From Bacilli bacterium (lineage in GTDB: Bacteria > Bacillota_I > Bacilli_A > RFN20 > CAG-826): 64,000 nt of DNA. This document shows, one piece after another, positions 9,174 to 21,997 of this stretch. The DNA is taken from positions 1,163 through 65,162 of the forward strand of contig JAQVAY010000001.1 in NCBI GenBank assembly GCA_028690575.1, written 5' to 3'. A program made the translations under genes and the position numbers. The notes beneath the pieces are model-generated. The model was not told where the DNA came from. It saw only the letters and a list, made by a program, of their open reading frames with translations, and made no database searches. How positions within the stretch are numbered: position 1 is the stretch's first letter; every line of letters begins with the position of its first letter.

Positions 9174-9809
9174 CTACTGTTTTTTGCTCTTTCGGTTTTG
9201 GTGATTTTGATATGAGAAAATGCAGCCACAATACTCTTGAAAATACATGTCTTGTTCTTTGATAATCAACAATGATTTTTCGTATCCATTGTCCTTTTTG
9301 AAATCTGCATAAAGCCATTTAGTTTTTTGATGGCTTTTTTGCAAGTCCTCGCCAATTTGGTTAATGTCTTCGGCGTTTTTGTACCGAGATATGGTCATCA
9401 CAGTTCCGTAATAATCAAAACCTTTAGACTCAGCGTAATCGAAACCGGCCGTTAATCTTTTCTTAAAACAAGCGCGACATCTCTCATGACCTTCCGCCAT
9501 GTTTCCATACTTCAGCAAATCTTTCATGTAGGTTGCATTATCATATGGTTCTTCAATCAAAGTTACTTTTGGGCACACGTCCCCAATATAGTCTTTTAAT
9601 TCTTTGAGACGCCGATAGTACTCTTCTTCAGGATAAATATTCGAATTATTATACATTACTGAAATTTTGAAAAAAGGAGCAAGTTCTTTAAATGGTATAG
9701 TGAAACAAGGCCCGCAACAAGCGTGCAATAAAAGAGATGGCTTATGTGAAATATCAATCAAATCAAGGGTATTTCGCAAAATCTTTTGATAATTCTTTCT
9801 ATTTGCCAT
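9174..9809 (-). CDS. queH: Epoxyqueuosine reductase QueH (DUF208)
   Basis: HACCGPC motif and a C-x-x-C pair; located next to queA and tgt. Start trimmed to MANRK because the longer ORF overlaps queA. Confidence 0.75.
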   Translation of the reverse strand: MANRKNYQKILRNTLDLIDISHKPSLLLHACCGPCFTIPFKELAPFFKISVMYNNSNIYPEEEYYRRLKELKDYIGDVCPKVTLIEEPYDNATYMKDLLKYGNMAEGHERCRACFKKRLTAGFDYAESKGFDYYGTVMTISRYKNAEDINQIGEDLQKSHQKTKWLYADFKKDNGYEKSLLIIKEQDMYFQEYCGCIFSYQNHQNRKSKKQ

Positions 9810-10829
9810 AAATGAACATTGCATCTCCAAAAGAAAAGAAACGATATTTTTTATCGACAGCGTGTTGATAAGCAAGGAGGGCAAAATCACGATCCATAAA
9901 AGCGGATACTAACATAAGCAAAGTAGACTTGGGGAGATGAAAATTTGTGACCAAAGCATCAACAACTTTGAATTTATATCCTGGCTGAATGAATATATTA
10001 GTAGACTCCCTTGTGGGTTTAAAAATACCATACTTTGAATAGTTTGCTTCCAGTGTTCTTACAGTAGTTGTTCCAACAGCAATGATTCGTTTTTTGCTTT
10101 CTTTTGCTGCGTTTAATATAACGCTAGATGATTCACTTATCTCATAAAGCTCACTATGCATTAGATGATCTTTGGTGTCAGTAACTTGAACGGGTCTAAA
10201 GGTTCCGAGACCAATATGAAGAGTGATATCAACAATCTGGACGCCAATCTTTTTTAATTCTTCAAAAATATCATCGGTAAAATGGAAACCTGCAGTCGGA
10301 GCAGCTGCGCTTCCTTCTAATTTTGCATAAACTGTTTGATAACGATCATTTGTGGTTATTTGTTTTTTGATGTACGGAGGAAGTGGCATTTTGCCTAATT
10401 TATCCAAAACTTCTAAAAATATACCTTGGTAGATAAACCGAAAAACTCTTAAGCCTTCATTTTTTTCTTCAATGCATTCAGCAATTAATTCGCCATCCCC
10501 AAAAATTACTCTAGAACCTATTTTAAGCGATTTTGCAGGTCTGCATAAGCATTCCCAGTCATCATTGATAATTTGTTTTAAAAGTAGAAGTTCACAGTGC
10601 GCACCAGTTTTTTCTTTTATGCCTAATAAGCGAGCAGGAATAACCTTGGTGTTGTTTCTAACCAAAACGTCTCCCTTATGGAAATATTTAATAATTTCAT
10701 AAAAATGTTCATCCTTTAATGTCTTCTCTCCATAATTGACGGCGAGTAGACGAGAATGATCACGTTTATCAGCCGGCTTTTGAGCAATAAGATCCTCAGG
10801 AAGAGGAAAATCAAATAGATTAATATCCA

Positions 10830-10830
<1 letters not shown>
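9799..10830 (-). CDS. queA: S-adenosylmethionine:tRNA ribosyltransferase-isomerase
   Basis: MDINLFDFPLPEDLIAQKPA is the QueA N-terminus; 343 aa. Confidence 0.9.
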
Positions 10831-11966
<1,136 letters not shown>

Positions 11967-11976
11967 TTAAACATTA

Positions 11977-12525
11977 TCATAGTTTAAAAGCAAGATTCTG
12001 ATTCGCTCGTATGAGTTTCATAAAGGTTTCCTGTTTTCTAAGAAACATAAACAAAATATAACCAGCAATCATTACCGCTAATTCTCCAAGAGCAACAGTT
12101 CCAGCATAAAACCAAAACGAAACAGAGGAATCAACAAAGAGATAGAGCATCAAACCAACAATCAATCCATTTGAAACGATTGGGTAAACGAGAGATACCA
12201 AAAGTATTTTTGAATAAGCAATGAGAAGGCAGGAAATCAAAGTCGCTAGAGTTCCGAACACAATGTCAAAAATTGAAACAGATGAAAACAAGTTAGCTAC
12301 GAGACATCCGATTGTAAGACCAATAACATAATCTTTCCGAAAAAAGCAAAGTAAAACCATTATTTCAGCAACGCGAAATTGAATTGGCCCATATGAAAAT
12401 TGGTAGGTTATTAATGTCAAAACAGCATATAATGCGGCAATTATGCCGTTACTGGCTATGTCTTTAATTGAAAGTTTCAAAATTCTTTCCTCCTTGTTTT
12501 TTGAGTGGTTAGGCAAGGACAACAC
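11977..12525 (-). CDS. Small polytopic membrane protein, possibly a queuosine-precursor transporter (QueT-like ECF S-component)
   Basis: About 5 TM helices and 182 aa; the call rests on genomic context with queH-queA-tgt, not on recognised motifs. Confidence 0.4.
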   Translation of the reverse strand: MLSLPNHSKNKEERILKLSIKDIASNGIIAALYAVLTLITYQFSYGPIQFRVAEIMVLLCFFRKDYVIGLTIGCLVANLFSSVSIFDIVFGTLATLISCLLIAYSKILLVSLVYPIVSNGLIVGLMLYLFVDSSVSFWFYAGTVALGELAVMIAGYILFMFLRKQETFMKLIRANQNLAFKL

Positions 12526-12532
12526 TCTATAA

Positions 12533-13441
12533 TTAATTGATTAGCTGAAGAATGAGAGAGCAGATATCTAAGACTTTGATATCTTTATTCAGTTTCTGTT
12601 CAATTGTATTGGTCACTGCAATATCGACAATATTGGCCTGCTTGAATTTTTTAATATTATGATTGGAAAACACAGCATGACTGGCTCCAATTAATACTTT
12701 TTTTGCTCCATGTTGATATAAAAGGTTTGTGGCTGAGATAATTGTGCCGCCTGTGTCAATAATGTCATCGATAATAATGCAAACCTTATCTTTAACTAGT
12801 CTATTATCAACAACAAGGTGTTCGGCAACATTTGCCTTTGGTCTTACTTTATCGAGAATCACTTTTACTTCTCCTACTGTTCCGACTAAGGCATCCGCTC
12901 GATTATTAGCTCCGTGATCTGGAGAAACGATAACAACATCATTTTTTCTCAAGTTATTTTCTTTCATGTAGTTTAAATAATAATCAATGAATATGCTACT
13001 TGTGCTTACACTTTTGATTGATCTTTTAAAGAAGCTCTCAATAACTGGATGATGTAAATCAAATGTAGTCAATGAATCATAATGGGCGGTTTCAATAATT
13101 TTGCTAACCACTTCACAGCTGACTGGTTCATTGATCCAGCTGACTCTTTCTTGTCGAGAATATCCAAAATAAGGAATAAACAATTGAATAGATTTGGCAC
13201 CAGAACGATTAATAGAATCTAACAACAAAAGTAATTCAAAAATACGTTCATGAGCATTTTTATATGTTGATTCAATTACAATAGCGTCTTTTCCTTTTAC
13301 ATTAGAAAGTGTTTTCACAAGTACTTCGCCATCAGCGAACCGAGTAATCGAAATGCGTCCTAGGTTAGCATCAAGTTTTTCCGCAAGTTCGCGTGCTAAC
13401 TTTTTATTTTGAGATAGGGAAAAAACGATGTAATTTTTCAT
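12533..13441 (-). CDS. prs: Ribose-phosphate pyrophosphokinase
   Basis: PRPP-binding DDIIDTGGT motif; 302 aa. Confidence 0.9.
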   Translation of the reverse strand: MKNYIVFSLSQNKKLARELAEKLDANLGRISITRFADGEVLVKTLSNVKGKDAIVIESTYKNAHERIFELLLLLDSINRSGAKSIQLFIPYFGYSRQERVSWINEPVSCEVVSKIIETAHYDSLTTFDLHHPVIESFFKRSIKSVSTSSIFIDYYLNYMKENNLRKNDVVIVSPDHGANNRADALVGTVGEVKVILDKVRPKANVAEHLVVDNRLVKDKVCIIIDDIIDTGGTIISATNLLYQHGAKKVLIGASHAVFSNHNIKKFKQANIVDIAVTNTIEQKLNKDIKVLDICSLILQLIN

Positions 13442-13445
13442 AAAA

Positions 13446-14063
13446 TTAACGATAGTGTTTTACAACAGTTAAAGCGATTTTTTTGTTGATAAATGATTGC
13501 TCAACATCAGCTCTTTTTTGATCAATCGCTATTCCTTTTGAATCTAAGTATTTAGTAAATTCGCGACAATAGAACCAATACCAAATACCAACTTTTTCGA
13601 AAGTTTTTTTCTCATCGTAAGTATCGTAAATTTGTGGTAAATAATACAGCTTATTTTCGTAGTATTTATAATTTATTGGGTCAAAACTTAAAAGAATTTT
13701 GGCGCTTTTCATATACCAATTATCGATAAAAATTGCGACAAAATATTCATCTGACAAATCATTCTGTAAAAGAACATCAAGAACAGTTGGCCCAGGAATA
13801 TACTCTTCGACAATGATATGAGTTTTTTTATCGTGGCAATAAATCTTTGGCGAAATAATGCCAGAGACGGATAATTTGTGAGCAGAATTTACATATCTCT
13901 CATAACCATCGACATCTTGTCCAAAATCTTTAAGGAAAAAAATCCTGTTTTTTCGAGTAACTTTTTTGCTTCGCTCTCCAAGCGGTTCAATAACCTCGAA
14001 GATTTTTCGTTTAATTTCAATTTGTTGGTTCATAATGCAATTATTATATGTCATTTGGCTCAT
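13446..14063 (-). CDS. Hypothetical protein with a minimal protein-kinase-like fold
   Basis: FFLKDF (VAIK-like lysine), IVEEYIPG (hinge-like), SFDPINY (HGDxxxN-like) and IYD are visible in this order. Confidence 0.5.
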   Translation of the reverse strand: MSQMTYNNCIMNQQIEIKRKIFEVIEPLGERSKKVTRKNRIFFLKDFGQDVDGYERYVNSAHKLSVSGIISPKIYCHDKKTHIIVEEYIPGPTVLDVLLQNDLSDEYFVAIFIDNWYMKSAKILLSFDPINYKYYENKLYYLPQIYDTYDEKKTFEKVGIWYWFYCREFTKYLDSKGIAIDQKRADVEQSFINKKIALTVVKHYR

Positions 14064-14130
14064 TTAACAAATAGGATTTTCTTTAAAGAAACTCTTTCTA
14101 ATTGTGCTAGTATTTATTTACGAGGTTTTT

Positions 14131-15324
14131 ATGAAAAATATTCAACGATTTATACGATATGCCCAGATTGACACACAAGCTGATGAAAATAGTTCAACCA
14201 TTCCTTCCACTGAAAAGCAGAAGAATCTTTCATCTTTACTCGTAAACGAATTAAAGGAGTTAGGTCTTTCTGATGCTTTTATGGATGAGTACGGGGTCGT
14301 TTATGGCCACTTGCCCGGCGAAGGAGACAAGATTGGTTTTAATTCTCATGTTGATACTGCTTTGGAAGTGACTGGAACGAATTGCCAACCAAAAATTATT
14401 GAAAAGTATGATGGGAAAGACATTAAACTCAATGAAAAGTATGTTCTATCTGCTAAACAATTTCCTAACCTTTTGAAATGTGTCGGGAAAGATTTAGTTG
14501 TTACTAATGGAGAGTCTTTGCTCGGAGCGGATGACAAAGCTGGAATTGCTATCATTATGTCTGCTTTAGAATATTTCCATAAAAACCCTTCAGAAAAGCA
14601 CAAAAATATATCGGTTGCCTTCACACCCGATGAAGAAATTGGTTTAGGCTCTGCACATTTTGATTTGAATAAAATGAACGCCGATTACGCTTTTACTATT
14701 GATGGTAGCTCTATTGATTGCATTGATTACGAAAACTTTAATGCCGCATCGGCAAAAATATTTATTCGTGGGGTGGCGGTTCATCCTGGAGAAGGAAAAA
14801 ACACTTTAATTAACGCAATATTGATTTTGAATGAGCTAATTTCCGCCTTGCCTGCAAAGGAAACGCCATATGATGCAAAAGAGGATGAAGGCTATTGGCA
14901 CATTAATAATTTAAATGGCACAAGTGAGTCTGCTCAATTAGATATGATTTTGCGAGATTTTGATGAACTAAAATTACAACAAAGAATTTTATTGATTAAT
15001 GAAATAGCGGGCAACCTTAAAAAGAAATATCCGAAGATTTCCGTTGATGTAGAAATAAAGAGGCAATATGAAAATATGAAACCTTATGTCGAAAAAGATC
15101 CTCGCCCAGTTCAACTTGCCAAAAAATCTTTACTCAAGAATGGAATTGCCCCTAGAAGCACCAAAATTCGGGGAGGAACCGATGGAGCGGCCTTCTCCAA
15201 AATGGGATTAGTGACTCCTAATCTTGGTACAGGAAGTTACAACCACCACGGGCGATATGAATATATCGTAATTCAAGAATTCGAAAAAATGGTTGATGTC
15301 GTAATCGATATGATGAGGTTATAA
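14131..15324 (+). CDS. pepT: Peptidase T (tripeptide aminopeptidase, M20B)
   Basis: MKNIQRFIRYAQIDTQ and the M20 metal-site residues; start after a GAGG site. Confidence 0.85.
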   Translation: MKNIQRFIRYAQIDTQADENSSTIPSTEKQKNLSSLLVNELKELGLSDAFMDEYGVVYGHLPGEGDKIGFNSHVDTALEVTGTNCQPKIIEKYDGKDIKLNEKYVLSAKQFPNLLKCVGKDLVVTNGESLLGADDKAGIAIIMSALEYFHKNPSEKHKNISVAFTPDEEIGLGSAHFDLNKMNADYAFTIDGSSIDCIDYENFNAASAKIFIRGVAVHPGEGKNTLINAILILNELISALPAKETPYDAKEDEGYWHINNLNGTSESAQLDMILRDFDELKLQQRILLINEIAGNLKKKYPKISVDVEIKRQYENMKPYVEKDPRPVQLAKKSLLKNGIAPRSTKIRGGTDGAAFSKMGLVTPNLGTGSYNHHGRYEYIVIQEFEKMVDVVIDMMRL

Positions 15325-17979: not shown

Positions 17980-18381
17980 ATGAACGTGTTGTTCTTTTTA
18001 ACTCCTAAAAATAATGTGGAATACCTACACGATACTTTTTCAGTTAGGCAAGCTCTTGAAAAAATGGAGCATCATCGTTACTCGTCAATTCCCGTTATCG
18101 ATAAAGAAGGTCGCTATGTTGAAACATTATCTACAAGTGATTTCTTATGGTTCATTAAAGGTAAAAATCTTAATCTTGAAATGTGTGAAAAAATTACTAT
18201 TAAAGAGATACAGCCATATCGATCAAATATTTCTATTCGAATTGACAAAGATGTGAGTGATTTAATCGACTTAATCGTGAATCAAAATTTTGTTCCTGTT
18301 GAAGATGATAAAGGCGTTTTCATCGGCATCATTACCAGAAAATCAGTCATGGACTACCTAGCAAAGAAACATAAAGATTAA
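17980..18381 (+). CDS. CBS-pair domain protein
   Basis: Two CBS-like repeats (SIPVIDKEGRYVETLSTSDFL and FVPVEDDKGVFIGIITRKSVMDYL). Confidence 0.7.
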   Translation: MNVLFFLTPKNNVEYLHDTFSVRQALEKMEHHRYSSIPVIDKEGRYVETLSTSDFLWFIKGKNLNLEMCEKITIKEIQPYRSNISIRIDKDVSDLIDLIVNQNFVPVEDDKGVFIGIITRKSVMDYLAKKHKD

Positions 18382-18700
18382 TAACCATGTTTTTTATATA
18401 AAGGATTCACAAATCAATGCAATAAAGATTTGTCGATTGGTTAGTTTTGTTAAAAAATGCAAATATGTTCAATTTTTAGATTAACTAAGCAAGTGTTGTT
18501 ATTCATTTTGCTCCTAAAGTAAAAAAATTGCCTGTTCATAAATGTGCATCCCACTCCAAAAAATAACGAATGTATCTTATTTACTAAGCGTTTTTATAAT
18601 AAGTTTTTTTCTTTGTTTAAGAAAAGCACAAAGGTGGTATGAAAATAAAAAATGGCAAGTATAATGGTCTTAACAGAGTTTATTTCAAATAAGAAAGAAG

Positions 18701-20659
18701 TTGTTTTATAAAATCATGGCGAAAATTCGTCTAGCAGAAAAAAATGATGCGTTGTTTTTGAAAAGTCTTGAGCAAAGGTGCTTTCCTGAGTCTCGTCAAG
18801 CTTCCTCCTCGTCTTTGAAACATAGTATGAGTAGTCATCACCAGTCAGTATTAATACTGGAAAACGATGATGATGTTCTTGTAGGAAGTGCGGTTGTATT
18901 TAAATTTAAAAAGACATGGCGGATATATTCTATTTCAATTCTGCCCGAATTTCAAAGACTCGGGCTCGGGCGATTTATAATGGAAAAGATTATTGAGAAA
19001 GCTAAGGAGTGTGGAATTCACTGCATTTCTTTGGAAGCTGATCACTGTAATAAAAAATTAATTGCCTGGTATAGGGCTTTTGGATTTTCTAAAGTCAAAA
19101 TATTGAAAGATTTCTATGGGAGCGGAGAAGATGCTGAAAAGATGTCTCTTCAACTAAAAAACGAGACTTCAGAAAAAGAATACCTTGCAAATATAGCCGT
19201 GGTAGATCATGAATACCCTTGGTTAAAGCAAATACCGAATCTAGAAGTAGTAAATATCCATCAATTTCTCAATGAAGAGAAATACCAAAATGCCAAAGAT
19301 TTACGAGTATTTAATCTTTGTTCTTCTCTCGGCTACCAAACACTAGGATATTATGTTTCCTTATTAGCAACCGCACGCGAGTTTCGACCAATACCTACAG
19401 TAGCAACTCTCGAAGATGCGCTTGACCAAACGATTACTGAATCAATAGGCGAAGAAGTTTTTGATGCTATTCAGGAAGCATTTAAACAAAATAGTAAAAA
19501 AGAAGTTAATTTCCGTATTATCTTTGGACAAAGCCACCCACCACGTTATGAAAAACTTGCTAAAACAATACTTCGTCTTTTCGAAGCGCCATTATTAGAA
19601 GTAACTTTTGTCAAAGAGCGAGTATGGAAATTAAAAAAAATCCAAATCCTTACTCTCAGCGACATTGTTGTTGATGAAGGAACGATTAAAGATGCCAAAA
19701 AATATTTTTCCCATAACCGATTTGCTATATCAAAAATCAAACAATACAAGTTTGATTTAGCTATTTTAATTGACCCAAAAGAACCCGCTGCTCCATCAGG
19801 TAAAACAGCTCTTGATAAATTTATCGATGCCGCCAAAAAAGTCGGATTCTACGTCGAATTTATCACTAAAGAAGACTATTCAAGAATCCCCCAATTTGAC
19901 GCTCTTTTTATACGGGCTACAACCAATGTTGATAATTATACTTATCAATTCTCACGCTATGCTTATTCTGAAGGGCTCGCTGTTATCGATGATCCTTGGT
20001 CTATTCTGAAATGCGCCAACAAGCTCTATTTCCATGAGTGCATGAGAAGCCACAATCTTCCTACTCCCAAAACTTTGATAGTTAGTGTTAAAACACCAAT
20101 CGAAAAAATAATATCGACATTCGATTTTCCGATTATTTTAAAAAGACCAGATAGTTCATCTTCTCTCGGTGTCTACAAAGTAACCGACGAAAAAGAATTA
20201 AGGATGAGAATGAGAGACCTTTTCCATAAGAGCGCCTTAATCATCGCTCAGGAATATATTCCCAGTGCATTCGATTGGAGAATTGGAATATTGGAAGGTA
20301 AACCACTTTATGCTTGCAAATACTATATGGCAAGAGACCACTGGCAAATTTATAACTGGAATACCAATAAATCTAATGCCACAGTAGGCGCGGTAGAAAC
20401 TTTTCTAATAGAAGATGCTCCCCAAGAGGTAGTTGAAACTGCTTTAAAGGCCGCTAATGCAATTGGTGATGGATTCTATGGTGTTGATTTGAAATCCAAA
20501 GATGGCAAAGTATATATTATTGAAGTAAATGATAACCCGAGCATCGATCGTCATTGGGAAGATGAAATTTTGGGCGATAAATTATATATTCAAATAATGG
20601 AAAATATCATGTCAAGAATTGAAAGAGCAAGACAGGATAAAATAAAAAAACTGATCTAA
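18701..20659 (+). CDS. Bifunctional RimI-like GNAT N-acetyltransferase / RimK-like ATP-grasp amidoligase (Ngg-like architecture). The likelier start is the ATG near 18716 (MAKIRL); the ORF-track start is a TTG.
   Basis: N-terminal GNAT (QRLGLGRFIM...YGSGEDAEKMSL), a central pre-ATP-grasp region and a C-terminal ATP-grasp (IILKRP...GVYKV...EYIP...YIIEVNDNPS). Confidence 0.75.
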   Translation: MFYKIMAKIRLAEKNDALFLKSLEQRCFPESRQASSSSLKHSMSSHHQSVLILENDDDVLVGSAVVFKFKKTWRIYSISILPEFQRLGLGRFIMEKIIEKAKECGIHCISLEADHCNKKLIAWYRAFGFSKVKILKDFYGSGEDAEKMSLQLKNETSEKEYLANIAVVDHEYPWLKQIPNLEVVNIHQFLNEEKYQNAKDLRVFNLCSSLGYQTLGYYVSLLATAREFRPIPTVATLEDALDQTITESIGEEVFDAIQEAFKQNSKKEVNFRIIFGQSHPPRYEKLAKTILRLFEAPLLEVTFVKERVWKLKKIQILTLSDIVVDEGTIKDAKKYFSHNRFAISKIKQYKFDLAILIDPKEPAAPSGKTALDKFIDAAKKVGFYVEFITKEDYSRIPQFDALFIRATTNVDNYTYQFSRYAYSEGLAVIDDPWSILKCANKLYFHECMRSHNLPTPKTLIVSVKTPIEKIISTFDFPIILKRPDSSSSLGVYKVTDEKELRMRMRDLFHKSALIIAQEYIPSAFDWRIGILEGKPLYACKYYMARDHWQIYNWNTNKSNATVGAVETFLIEDAPQEVVETALKAANAIGDGFYGVDLKSKDGKVYIIEVNDNPSIDRHWEDEILGDKLYIQIMENIMSRIERARQDKIKKLI

Positions 20660-20678
20660 AAAAGATGGATCCCAGCGT

Positions 20679-20694
20679 TGTTCTAATTTATTAG
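20679..20694. promoter_or_regulatory. Perfect 7-2-7 palindrome TTCTAATTTATTAGAA upstream of a TTGCGT-16-TATAAT promoter of the ferritin gene; candidate Fur/PerR-family operator
   Basis: Palindrome seen directly in the sequence; regulator assignment is inference from its position before an iron-storage gene. Confidence 0.3.
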
Positions 20695-20797
20695 AACTAG
20701 TGAAATATGTTTTGCGTAAAGCATATTGCTTTTTATAATGATGGCAATAGTCTAAAATATTTGTGAAGGTCGAAAGACTTTCAGAAAGAAGAAAATT

Positions 20798-21921: not shown

Positions 21922-21997
21922 TGGTGGATCTGACCGGGATCGAACCGGCTACCTCCTCGTTGCGAACGAGGCGCTCTCCCAGATGAGCTACAGACCC
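21922..21997 (-). tRNA. tRNA-Ala, anticodon CGC, 76 nt with encoded CCA
   Basis: Manually folded cloverleaf: acceptor GGGTCTG/CAGATCC with a G3:U70 alanine identity pair, discriminator A73, anticodon loop TTCGCAA, T-loop TTCGATC. It is highly similar to E. coli tRNA-Ala. Confidence 0.85.

Follow-up and report, generated by a model that had tools for sequence, protein, structure and literature searches.

Described systems and the relation to Ngg

Ngg (SMb20482 / PA3460) carries an N-terminal GNAT domain and a C-terminal ATP-grasp domain in one polypeptide, and its gene is operonic with those of an AsnO amidotransferase and an M42 peptidase. In mammals, NAT8L makes N-acetylaspartate, and RIMKLA or RIMKLB then makes N-acetylaspartylglutamate. 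RimK and LysX/ArgX act on protein C-termini (those of S6 and LysW, respectively), and the target of RimI is the N-terminus of a protein. The RLAN–RimK family (PF14401 + PF08443), the members of which are annotated as 'RimK family protein', was reportedly predicted only through comparative genomics, by Iyer et al. in Mol Biosyst in 2009. Our literature searches found no paper describing the product of any member of this family.

The gene studied here lies in a stretch of DNA of 64,000 nucleotides that was analysed as a whole (the window). Its product has, like Ngg, an N-terminal GNAT domain and a C-terminal ATP-grasp domain in a single polypeptide, and the sequence-only reading had assigned it to an Ngg-like family. 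A true Ngg orthologue that makes N-acetylglutaminylglutamine, and that either does not need AsnO or relies on one encoded at another place in the genome, would have this general layout, and an M20/M42-like peptidase gene located four genes upstream (approximately 14104–15324; 14125–15321 scanned) bears a loose resemblance to the M42 peptidase described for the NAGGN cluster (PMC8070244). However, the comparison with Ngg, which was made through the TIGR03103 HMM (Ngg equivalog, 547 positions) and not with the Ngg sequence itself, yielded only 13.4 bits (E 0.02) for the GNAT segment, against a cutoff of 569, and this match covered just 62 GNAT residues (model positions 157–218 of 547). TIGR03103 did not match the RLAN segment and was outside the best 25 families in the scan of the full-length protein. 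The window protein has an RLAN domain between the GNAT and ATP-grasp domains, whereas Ngg lacks this domain, and the 547-position model contains no counterpart of RLAN and leaves no room for it. A tblastn search against plasmids gave a match to a glutathione-synthetase-like ATP-grasp protein in Sinorhizobium, not to Ngg.

Neither of the operon partners of Ngg is found at the window gene. The absence of an AsnO neighbour, which had been noted previously, was confirmed: no AsnO or asparagine-synthase-type gene is adjacent to the gene or present in the flanking ORFs scanned, none was found among the ten other window ORFs of at least 400 aa (eleven such ORFs with the fusion gene), and none is adjacent in about 30 loci of the clade to which the gene belongs. 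Orthology to Ngg is refuted by the HMM result, and we consider this explanation hardly tenable; the likeness is one of general architecture only.

Ngg nevertheless provides a plausible mechanistic analogue, being described in PMC8070244, which cites Sagot 2010 on this point, as an enzyme that both N-acetylates and forms the peptide bond. We favour, with a probability of roughly 0.45, the view that the enzyme encoded by the window gene makes, by itself, a short acidic peptide that is N-acetylated. It would be an analogue of Ngg and of NAT8L plus RIMKLA that arose independently of both. The mammalian enzymes are two separate, distantly related proteins, whereas the window enzyme is a single fusion. 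The suggestion of a synthetase for an unknown N-acyl dipeptide, put forward earlier as a fallback, remains the most plausible putative function.

Start codon and modules of the fusion protein

The ORF listing gives an ORF at 18701–20659 on the forward strand, corresponding to 652 aa counted from the TTG at 18701. All 108 aligned homologues (108/108) begin at the residue matching the ATG at 18716 (M-x-x-I-R...), and the real product is therefore 647 aa long, with ATG 18716 and not TTG 18701 as the true start. The ORF described in the sequence-only reading thus exists, but its product is shorter than the stated 652 aa. The coding sequence of the GNAT–RLAN–RimK-type fusion protein, as defined by the ORF listing, the alignment of 108 homologues and the domain matches, extends from 18716 to 20659 (forward strand), including a TAA stop codon at 20657–20659.

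Pfam analysis revealed that the 647-aa protein consists of a RimI-like GNAT domain, followed by RLAN and then by a complete RimK/LysX-type ATP-grasp domain. The AlphaFold2 model (pLDDT 86) contains three modules, with low-confidence linkers at residues 150–156 and 337–345. The fusion of a GNAT domain to a RimK-type ATP-grasp domain is therefore real, as had been claimed: the Pfam search for the two folds found both (Acetyltransf_1 at residues 20–129, E 3.7e-17; RimK, Dala_Dala_lig_C and ATP-grasp_3 models at residues 438–618, E 1e-8 to 1e-13), plus RLAN. PADLOC found no match to defence systems, and a defence-system reading of the gene was rejected.

The GNAT domain (residues 1–149; 18716–19162, forward strand) is a RimI/NAT-like N-alpha-acetyltransferase domain, as judged from Acetyltransf_1, the rimI HMM and the alignment to 2cnm. 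Its closest relatives are N-alpha-acetyltransferases, i.e. RimI and the archaeal/eukaryotic NATs, and its top PDB match is RimI (2cnm, E 5.7e-10). In the alignment to 2cnm, residues E103 and Y115 of RimI, which we take to be the general base and the general acid, respectively, of the Salmonella enzyme, correspond to E107 and Y119; neither of these two residues varies in the 108 homologues, nor do G85 and Y134. RimI is a free protein of about 150 aa, whereas the window GNAT domain is fused to a ligase, and the isolated GNAT segment scored 58.9 bits with the NCBIfam rimI equivalog (TIGR01575), under its cutoff of 86.4 bits.

In the acetyl-CoA-binding motif of the GNAT domain (Q/R-x-x-G-x-G/A), the first glycine is not constant within the clade. 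This would fit a GNAT domain that does not cap the substrate but senses acetyl-CoA for regulation or works as a Fem-like aminoacyl transferase, with a non-acetylated product, such as a glutathione-like compound or oligo-glutamate. A non-acetylated product is already presumed for the operon of the unfused relatives, which lack a GNAT domain and have a GCS2 ligase as partner. However, the equivalents of the RimI catalytic Glu/Tyr pair and the last glycine of the pyrophosphate-binding loop are invariant in the 108 sequences, and the nearest relatives are bona fide acetyltransferases, making a GNAT domain without capping activity distinctly improbable.

The RimK/LysX-type ATP-grasp ligase domain (residues 346–647; 19751–20656, forward strand) is complete, according to the Pfam and NCBIfam matches, Foldseek and the conserved residues. 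The best ATP-grasp families were the RimK-family alpha-L-glutamate ligases, MptN and LysX. The protein scored 80.6 bits with NCBIfam rimK_fam (TIGR00768), under the cutoff of 143.4 bits, and 71.3 bits with MptN. In Foldseek comparisons, residues ~345–647 gave target-normalised TM-scores of 0.75 to 0.83 against whole LysX/ArgX/RimK chains. The expected residue set is present (ATP-binding Lys, hinge Q/E and Mg-binding D...E-x-N), with K476, Q512, E603 and N605 invariant in the 108 homologues and D591 kept in at least 90% of them. Given the invariance of these ATP/Mg2+ residues and of the RimI-type catalytic pair, both activities are under selection. The protein thus has the fold and the ATP/Mg residues of its best-scoring family, that of RimK (the S6 poly-alpha-L-glutamate ligase), MptN and CofF, but it differs from RimK in falling below the family cutoff and in carrying the additional RLAN and GNAT domains. 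Its identity to LysX/ArgX, the LysW ligases, is only 16–18%, and the setting of these enzymes (a LysW-like carrier gene and a lysine/arginine biosynthesis context) is missing around the window gene.

The middle segment had been labelled a pre-ATP-grasp domain. This label is wrong. The ATP-grasp domain at residues ~345–647 already has its own N-terminal (pre-ATP-grasp) subdomain. The segment directly N-terminal to it is RLAN (PF14401: residues 187–324, E 1.1e-36, 126.2 bits versus a gathering cutoff of 25 bits), a highly conserved extra module without the ATP-grasp catalytic motif. The domain was delimited with PF14401 and the structure model as a truncated ATP-grasp-like fold at residues 157–336 (19184–19723, forward strand). 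On the basis of structure only, RLAN may be considered ATP-grasp-like, as a degenerate half ATP-grasp. An origin by internal duplication of the ATP-grasp domain was rejected: hhalign aligned RLAN in register with the ATP-grasp domain of the same protein, but not significantly (E 0.26). The role of RLAN is probably in substrate binding or oligomerisation.

As RimK, LysX/ArgX and RimI all modify proteins, a protein substrate is equally compatible with homology. The enzyme could be a fused RimI/RimK-type modifier, as was also considered in the sequence-only reading, extending a protein at a carboxylate with a tail of oligo-glutamate or another peptide and acetylating a protein amino group, with the ribosomal bS6/bS18 pair, or a substrate encoded elsewhere, as candidate targets. 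The best family and PDB matches of the GNAT domain are to RimI, and the nearest solved ATP-grasp folds are those of RimK, acting on S6, and of LysX/ArgX, acting on the carrier protein LysW; the large extra RLAN could serve as a protein-docking domain, and, on the ribosome, bS6 pairs with bS18 as a heterodimer. However, the scores obtained with the RimI and RimK models are well under their cutoffs, the fused gene has no conserved neighbour encoding a small substrate or a carrier, and the GCS2 and FGase partners of the unfused relatives belong to small-peptide/amino-acid chemistry. No rpsF was identified among the window ORFs scanned. We consider modification of a protein to be a rather doubtful alternative to synthesis of a small N-acetylated peptide.

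The RLAN–RimK family and the putative product of the fused clade

The RLAN–RimK family comprises 363 clusters at 50% identity, from at least 598 species of many phyla, and its RLAN and ATP-grasp domains are homologous to those of the window protein, which is 36–46% identical to the 'RimK family protein' of Legionella, Azospirillum and Pseudomonas over residues ~158–640. In a neighbour-joining tree of the RLAN + ATP-grasp core, the fused sequences formed a single clade inside the family. On sequence grounds, the gene is a member of this clade, in which RLAN–RimK proteins carry a fused GNAT domain. More than 100 full-length fused homologues were found (45–93% identity), mostly in Bacilli, Acholeplasmataceae, Izemoplasmataceae and Liberiplasma, but also in marine Bacteroidota and Verrucomicrobiota. 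The gene had been regarded as unusual in a low-GC Bacillota/Mollicutes-like genome, a view at odds with this distribution, most of the homologues coming from Bacilli and Mollicutes-like MAGs. Liberiplasma polymorphum, a species that is named and formally entered in the taxonomy, carries a gene of the fused clade, and the culturable hosts include Liberiplasma, Draconibacterium and Maribellus. The hosts of this clade display a marine/saline bias, which is anecdotal.

The unfused members have operon partners, in the order C39-like peptidase, RLAN–RimK, GCS2 carboxylate-amine ligase and FGase amidohydrolase. In 50 unfused loci, the C39-like peptidase was found at position −1 in 26, GCS2 was no more than four genes away in 33 (at +1 in 30), and FGase was no more than four genes away in 22 (at +2 in 18). 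This operon occurs in Legionella, Pseudomonas, Thiobacillus and others. In contrast, all three partners are absent from 24 of 24 fused loci, including that of the window. The fused clade has lost the three partners and has an added N-terminal GNAT domain. As the operon is a feature of the unfused subgroup, the place of the fused protein in the wider family stands.

No conserved neighbour of the fused gene was detected across the 24 loci, and the gene looks monocistronic. Nothing in the gene context, for instance a transporter or regulator for osmolytes, hints at a metabolic role. The order of genes around the window gene (M20 peptidase, nucleoside hydrolase, PfkB, PPTase, CBS, fusion gene and ferritin) is syntenic in close relatives. 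In a relative with 79% protein identity, CBS is upstream with one gene between, and PPTase and ferritin are nearby but not adjacent. None of these three genes is near the fusion gene in relatives at 68% identity or in more distant ones, and they were therefore rejected as functional partners. The locus had been described as the most accessory-looking of the window, but this description is not consistent with the synteny in close relatives or with the GC content of the gene, which is that of the window background.

The favoured small-peptide synthetase would be a stand-alone, cytosolic and bifunctional enzyme. Its ATP-grasp domain would convert a carboxylate to an acyl-phosphate and then join an amino acid to it. 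To our knowledge, every characterised RimK/LysX-type enzyme uses L-glutamate or another acidic amino acid, and the residue added would therefore most likely be L-glutamate or another acidic one. The GNAT domain would take acetyl-CoA as donor and acetylate the same substrate at its alpha-amino group; the expected product is a dipeptide or oligopeptide bearing an N-acetyl group, N-acetyl-X-Glu(n). The enzyme would thus work like Ngg or the mammalian NAT8L and RIMKLA pair, with an independent origin and without the AsnO amidation step. N-acetylation may be what the fused clade has in place of the gamma-glutamyl-type N-acylation provided by GCS2 in the unfused operon. What we infer here is which substrate is used, which of the two reactions comes first and that the product is a small molecule.

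The family has already been catalogued and is clearly enzymatic but uncharacterised, and the window gene is an additional member. In the fused clade, the whole predicted pathway (acetyl capping and peptide-bond formation) would be contained in one monocistronic gene, and this clade would therefore provide the easiest entry point to the product of the RLAN–RimK family. A result for the fused clade would reveal a small N-acetyl peptide or a protein modification, new in either case, and would also make clearer what the C39/GCS2/FGase operon does. We suggest, very tentatively, that the fused clade makes an undescribed N-acetylated acidic peptide, possibly a new compatible solute or signalling metabolite, by an Ngg-independent route in which RLAN is a built-in substrate-handling module. 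If true, this metabolite would belong to wall-less, low-GC Bacilli and to marine Bacteroidota/Verrucomicrobiota.

The region upstream of the fusion gene

With the start at ATG 18716, the upstream intergenic gap extends over 334 nt (18382–18715). This region had been described as an untranslated AT-rich leader of roughly 330 nt, but several results argue against this interpretation. The search of the whole window with Rfam at gathering thresholds returned only a tRNA, and at E values of up to 10 the region 18300–18800 gave only chance matches. The gap folded no better than shuffled sequence (z +0.43), and its small ORFs, of no more than 40 aa, are unsupported and attributable to chance only. 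A riboswitch or other structured leader was rejected on these grounds. Furthermore, conservation of the gap is confined to its last ~130 nt, and the distal ~200 nt already differ in the relative whose protein is 93% identical.

The conserved part includes a TATAAT −10 box (18660–18665, forward strand), about 50 nt before ATG 18716, which is invariant in four relatives of 68–93% protein identity. Together with a weak −35 region, a poor match at about 18637–18642 on the same strand, it constitutes a probable promoter at 18637–18665 (forward strand). A consensus promoter scan did not report this TATAAT, because the −35 box is poor, and the promoter call therefore rests on conservation only. The segment before it (18382–18636, forward strand), which had been counted as part of the leader, is a non-conserved AT-rich intergenic spacer, as indicated by its divergence and by the Rfam and folding results. 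The annotation of the window is thus corrected in that the gene is not Ngg, its start is shifted by 15 nt and the regulatory leader is dropped. The long 'leader' is most likely an ordinary promoter region, with a predicted transcription start at about 18672, and, given the position of the invariant TATAAT, the 5' UTR is probably only about 45 nt long.

Domain architecture, catalytic residues and comparison with Ngg

The six-frame ORF list contained one long ORF at 18701..20659 (+), with 652 aa counted from a TTG codon. In homologue alignments (18, later 108 sequences), all the proteins start at the Met of ATG 18716 (M-x-x-I-R...), so the fusion protein has 647 aa. Pfam searches identified Acetyltransf_1 at residues 20–129 (E 3.7e-17), RLAN ("RimK-like ATPgrasp N-terminal domain", PF14401) at residues 187–324 (E 1.1e-36), and the RimK, D-Ala-D-Ala-ligase-C and ATP-grasp_3 models at residues 438–618, confirming the GNAT and RimK-type ATP-grasp architecture proposed in the sequence-only reading. 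The "pre-ATP-grasp" domain of that reading is indeed present between the two enzyme domains, but it corresponds to RLAN, an additional module. The NCBIfam matches were all below threshold (rimK_fam, 80.6 bits vs. a cutoff of 143.4; MptN, LysX and rimI).

The AlphaFold2 model, based on the 108-sequence alignment (mean pLDDT 86), consisted of three modules, with low-confidence linkers at residues 150–156 and 337–345. In Foldseek searches against the PDB, residues ~345–647 aligned to D-Ala-D-Ala ligases and matched whole LysX, ArgX and RimK chains (target-normalised TM-score 0.75–0.83), indicating that the C-terminal module is an entire ATP-grasp, N-subdomain included. A profile–profile comparison of RLAN with this ATP-grasp placed the N-subdomains in register at a non-significant E value (0.26), and the RLAN residues invariant in the 108 homologues (N200, Q208, G211, Y212, S215, R221, D234 and W304) differ from the ATP-grasp catalytic set. 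In our reading, RLAN is an ATP-grasp-like module that is degenerate, has no catalytic role and is under strong constraint; it may act as a substrate-binding or assembly domain.

The invariant ATP-grasp columns of the 108 homologues, K476 (the ATP-binding lysine within "ILKxPD"), Q512, E603 and N605, line up with the corresponding ligase motifs of LysX and Ddl; D591 is shared by at least 90% of the sequences. In the GNAT domain, G85, E107, Y119 and Y134 are invariant, and alignment with Salmonella RimI (2cnm, E 5.7e-10) matched E107 and Y119 to RimI E103 and Y115, the catalytic base and acid. Given these invariant catalytic residues, both activities appear to have been maintained by selection. 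One polypeptide combines two enzyme domains with intact catalytic residues and a conserved ATP-grasp-like module. Beside these residues, a regulatory or non-acetylating GNAT is quite improbable, and we rank it below the possibility of a protein substrate.

The label "Ngg-like" attached to this protein did not hold. Our comparison is based on TIGR03103, an equivalog model for Ngg with 547 positions and a 569-bit cutoff, which matched the isolated GNAT segment with 13.4 bits (E 0.02, model positions 157–218), did not match the isolated RLAN segment, and was outside the 25 best NCBIfam families for the full-length protein. Since the GNAT core lies at ~157–218 of this model, too little of Ngg is left to accommodate both an RLAN of 180 residues and an ATP-grasp of 300 residues. 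Ngg is encoded alongside an AsnO amidotransferase and an M42 peptidase, according to the passage of PMC8070244 citing Sagot et al. 2010. As had been noted for AsnO, neither gene adjoins the fusion gene, and neither turned up in the remaining window ORFs with 400 aa or more or in the flanking ORFs scanned. In view of the TIGR03103 scores, it is extremely doubtful that the fusion protein is a true Ngg orthologue. A Sinorhizobium tblastn match was rejected as Ngg, being a glutathione-synthetase-like ATP-grasp.

Distribution and single origin of the GNAT fusion

A search of a 5.8-billion-protein collection yielded 2,825 matches. Among the 120 best, over 100 were full-length (~645 aa, 45–93% identity) with the same Pfam architecture; those with a name are "GNAT family N-acetyltransferase". 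Their sources are Bacilli MAGs, Acholeplasmataceae, Izemoplasmataceae, Clostridia and Liberiplasma polymorphum. Contrary to what had been supposed, the gene is therefore not unusual for a low-GC Bacillota/Mollicutes-like genome. A scan with one genome per GTDB species placed relatives in at least 598 species, the full-length fused form also occurring in marine Bacteroidota (Draconibacterium, Saccharicrinis, Prolixibacteraceae, Maribellus, Mangrovimonas, Carboxylicivirga and Mariniphaga), Balneolaceae, Spirochaeta, Verrucomicrobiota and Kiritimatiellales. GNAT-less homologues ("RimK family protein", 36–46% identity over residues ~158–640) were found by tblastn on plasmids and chromids of Legionella, Azospirillum, Pseudomonas, Tistrella and Aeromonas. 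When 1.84 billion cluster representatives were searched exhaustively with HMMER, the family amounted to 363 clusters (E ≤1e-30); about 13 of the best 150 were full-length fused forms and most others had ~490 aa.

In a neighbour-joining tree of the shared RLAN and ATP-grasp core, all the fused sequences formed one clade, with a Bacilli/Mollicutes and a Bacteroidota/Spirochaeta branch and an unfused Cytophagales group as sister, showing that the GNAT fusion had a single origin. P0224 (984 aa), P0230 (975 aa) and P0238 (827 aa) are far longer homologues than either form, and in Thiobacillus thioparus (locus L046, 10120–12690) the RimK-type and GCS2 genes were called as a single 856-aa frame. Such cases may reflect further fusions or ORF-calling artefacts.

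Gene context and proposed function

We called and clustered ORFs in 50 unfused and 24 fused loci. The unfused gene lies in a conserved operon, in the order C39-like papain-fold peptidase (~243 aa, position −1 in 26 of the 50 loci), RLAN-RimK, GCS2 glutamate-cysteine-ligase-family protein (~415 aa, within four genes in 33 loci and at +1 in 30) and FGase N-formylglutamate-amidohydrolase-family protein (~240 aa, within four genes in 22 and at +2 in 18). Pfam confirmed all three partners, and a Legionella record carries the same annotation for GCS2 and FGase. The four-gene operon occurs in Legionella, Nitrosomonas, Thiobacillus, Planctomycetes, Cytophagales and others (e.g., loci L008, 41–3232; L032, L041, L057, L074–L076 and others, ~9250–13450). 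Around the fused gene (24 loci), conservation of neighbours ended with very close relatives, and the Pfam-annotated contexts in the relatives with 93%, 79%, 68% and ~47% protein identity were wholly different. The GCS2, FGase and C39 partners have thus been lost in the fused clade, in which the gene is apparently a stand-alone, monocistronic unit.

Characterised RimK-family and LysX-type ligases convert a carboxylate to an acyl-phosphate and then join it to the alpha-amine of Glu or alpha-aminoadipate, both acidic amino acids. As the GNAT domain falls in the N-alpha-acetyltransferase group, we propose that the fusion protein would synthesise a short acidic peptide capped by N-acetylation, N-acetyl-X-Glu(n), with acetyl standing in for the N-acyl (gamma-glutamyl-type) group presumed from GCS2 in the unfused operon. 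Its chemistry would follow the logic of Ngg and of NAT8L plus RIMKLA, arrived at independently. We assign this reading a tentative probability of about 45%; a synthetase of an unknown N-acyl peptide, the fallback of the sequence-only reading, remains the best hypothesis. The main rival, RimI/RimK-like tagging of a protein such as bS6/bS18 or another, is consistent with the closest solved relatives acting on proteins, and we consider it rather unlikely. Many fused-clade hosts in the GTDB scan bear marine or saline taxon names, an anecdotal observation compatible with an osmolyte role of the proposed peptide.

The fusion gene belongs to a catalogued, functionally uncharacterised family, and RLAN is already a Pfam entry. 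Full-text literature searches identified no functional study of RLAN, PF14401, "RimK family protein" or the operon composition, and no paper on the function of the C39-like/RLAN-RimK/GCS2/FGase operon. The family is large, clearly enzymatic and experimentally tractable; the window locus adds nothing beyond features already in hundreds of database entries.

Upstream region and neighbourhood in the window

The CBS gene stop at 18381 leaves a 334-nt gap before ATG 18716, described previously as a long leader. This description was not supported: Rfam gave nothing, either with gathering thresholds or with the limit relaxed to E 10, folding was no better than for shuffled sequence (z +0.43), and conservation with the 93% relatives was confined to the proximal ~130 nt. 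In relatives down to 68% identity, the sole invariant block was TATAAT (18660–18665), with a conserved CAGAGTT after it. This conservation is most simply explained by a sigma-70-type −10 box whose −35 partner is poor, which would place the transcription start near 18672, with a 5' UTR of ~45 nt, the other ~250 nt probably being plain AT-rich spacer.

The neighbourhood is housekeeping, with a ribosomal protein operon, QueH/QueA/Tgt/QueT, Prs, M20 peptidase, nucleoside hydrolase, PfkB kinase, PPTase and CBS protein upstream, and ferritin, tRNA, phosphodiesterase, RmuC, DinB, UvrB, SecA and more downstream. GC at the fusion gene (0.32–0.36) equals the window background, and the genes lie in the same order as in the 93% relative; nothing marks the locus as horizontally acquired or, contrary to the earlier suggestion, as accessory. 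PADLOC gave no match. The one exception to synteny is a 409-aa Fer4_20 and Pyr_redox_2 gene resembling GltD, the glutamate-synthase small subunit, between the fusion gene and ferritin in the 93% relatives (L001, 10017–11246; also L002 and L003). The window has a mere 139-nt gap there (20660–20797), the ferritin-proximal ~95 nt of which are conserved. A perfect palindrome at 20680–20697 (GTTCTAAT-TT-ATTAGAAC), ~100 nt before the start of ferritin (20798) and missing from the 93% relative, may represent an operator bound by a metal or peroxide regulator, or else a remnant of the insertion/deletion at this site.

The best model for the CBS-pair protein (17980–18381, +) was the cyclic-di-AMP-binding CbpB (79.6 bits vs. 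a cutoff of 125); its gene precedes the fusion gene in relatives with at least 79% identity, another gene intervening at 79%. The higher-GC block of the window (0.41–0.47) is the ribosomal protein operon (L6, L5, S3, L2, L4, L3; 1–9000, −), followed by the queuosine cluster (QueH, QueA, Tgt, QueT) and Prs (9177–13441, −). The sole Rfam match in the window was a tRNA gene (21925–21997, −; 60.3 bits), between a 110-aa membrane-protein ORF and a phosphodiesterase-family gene.
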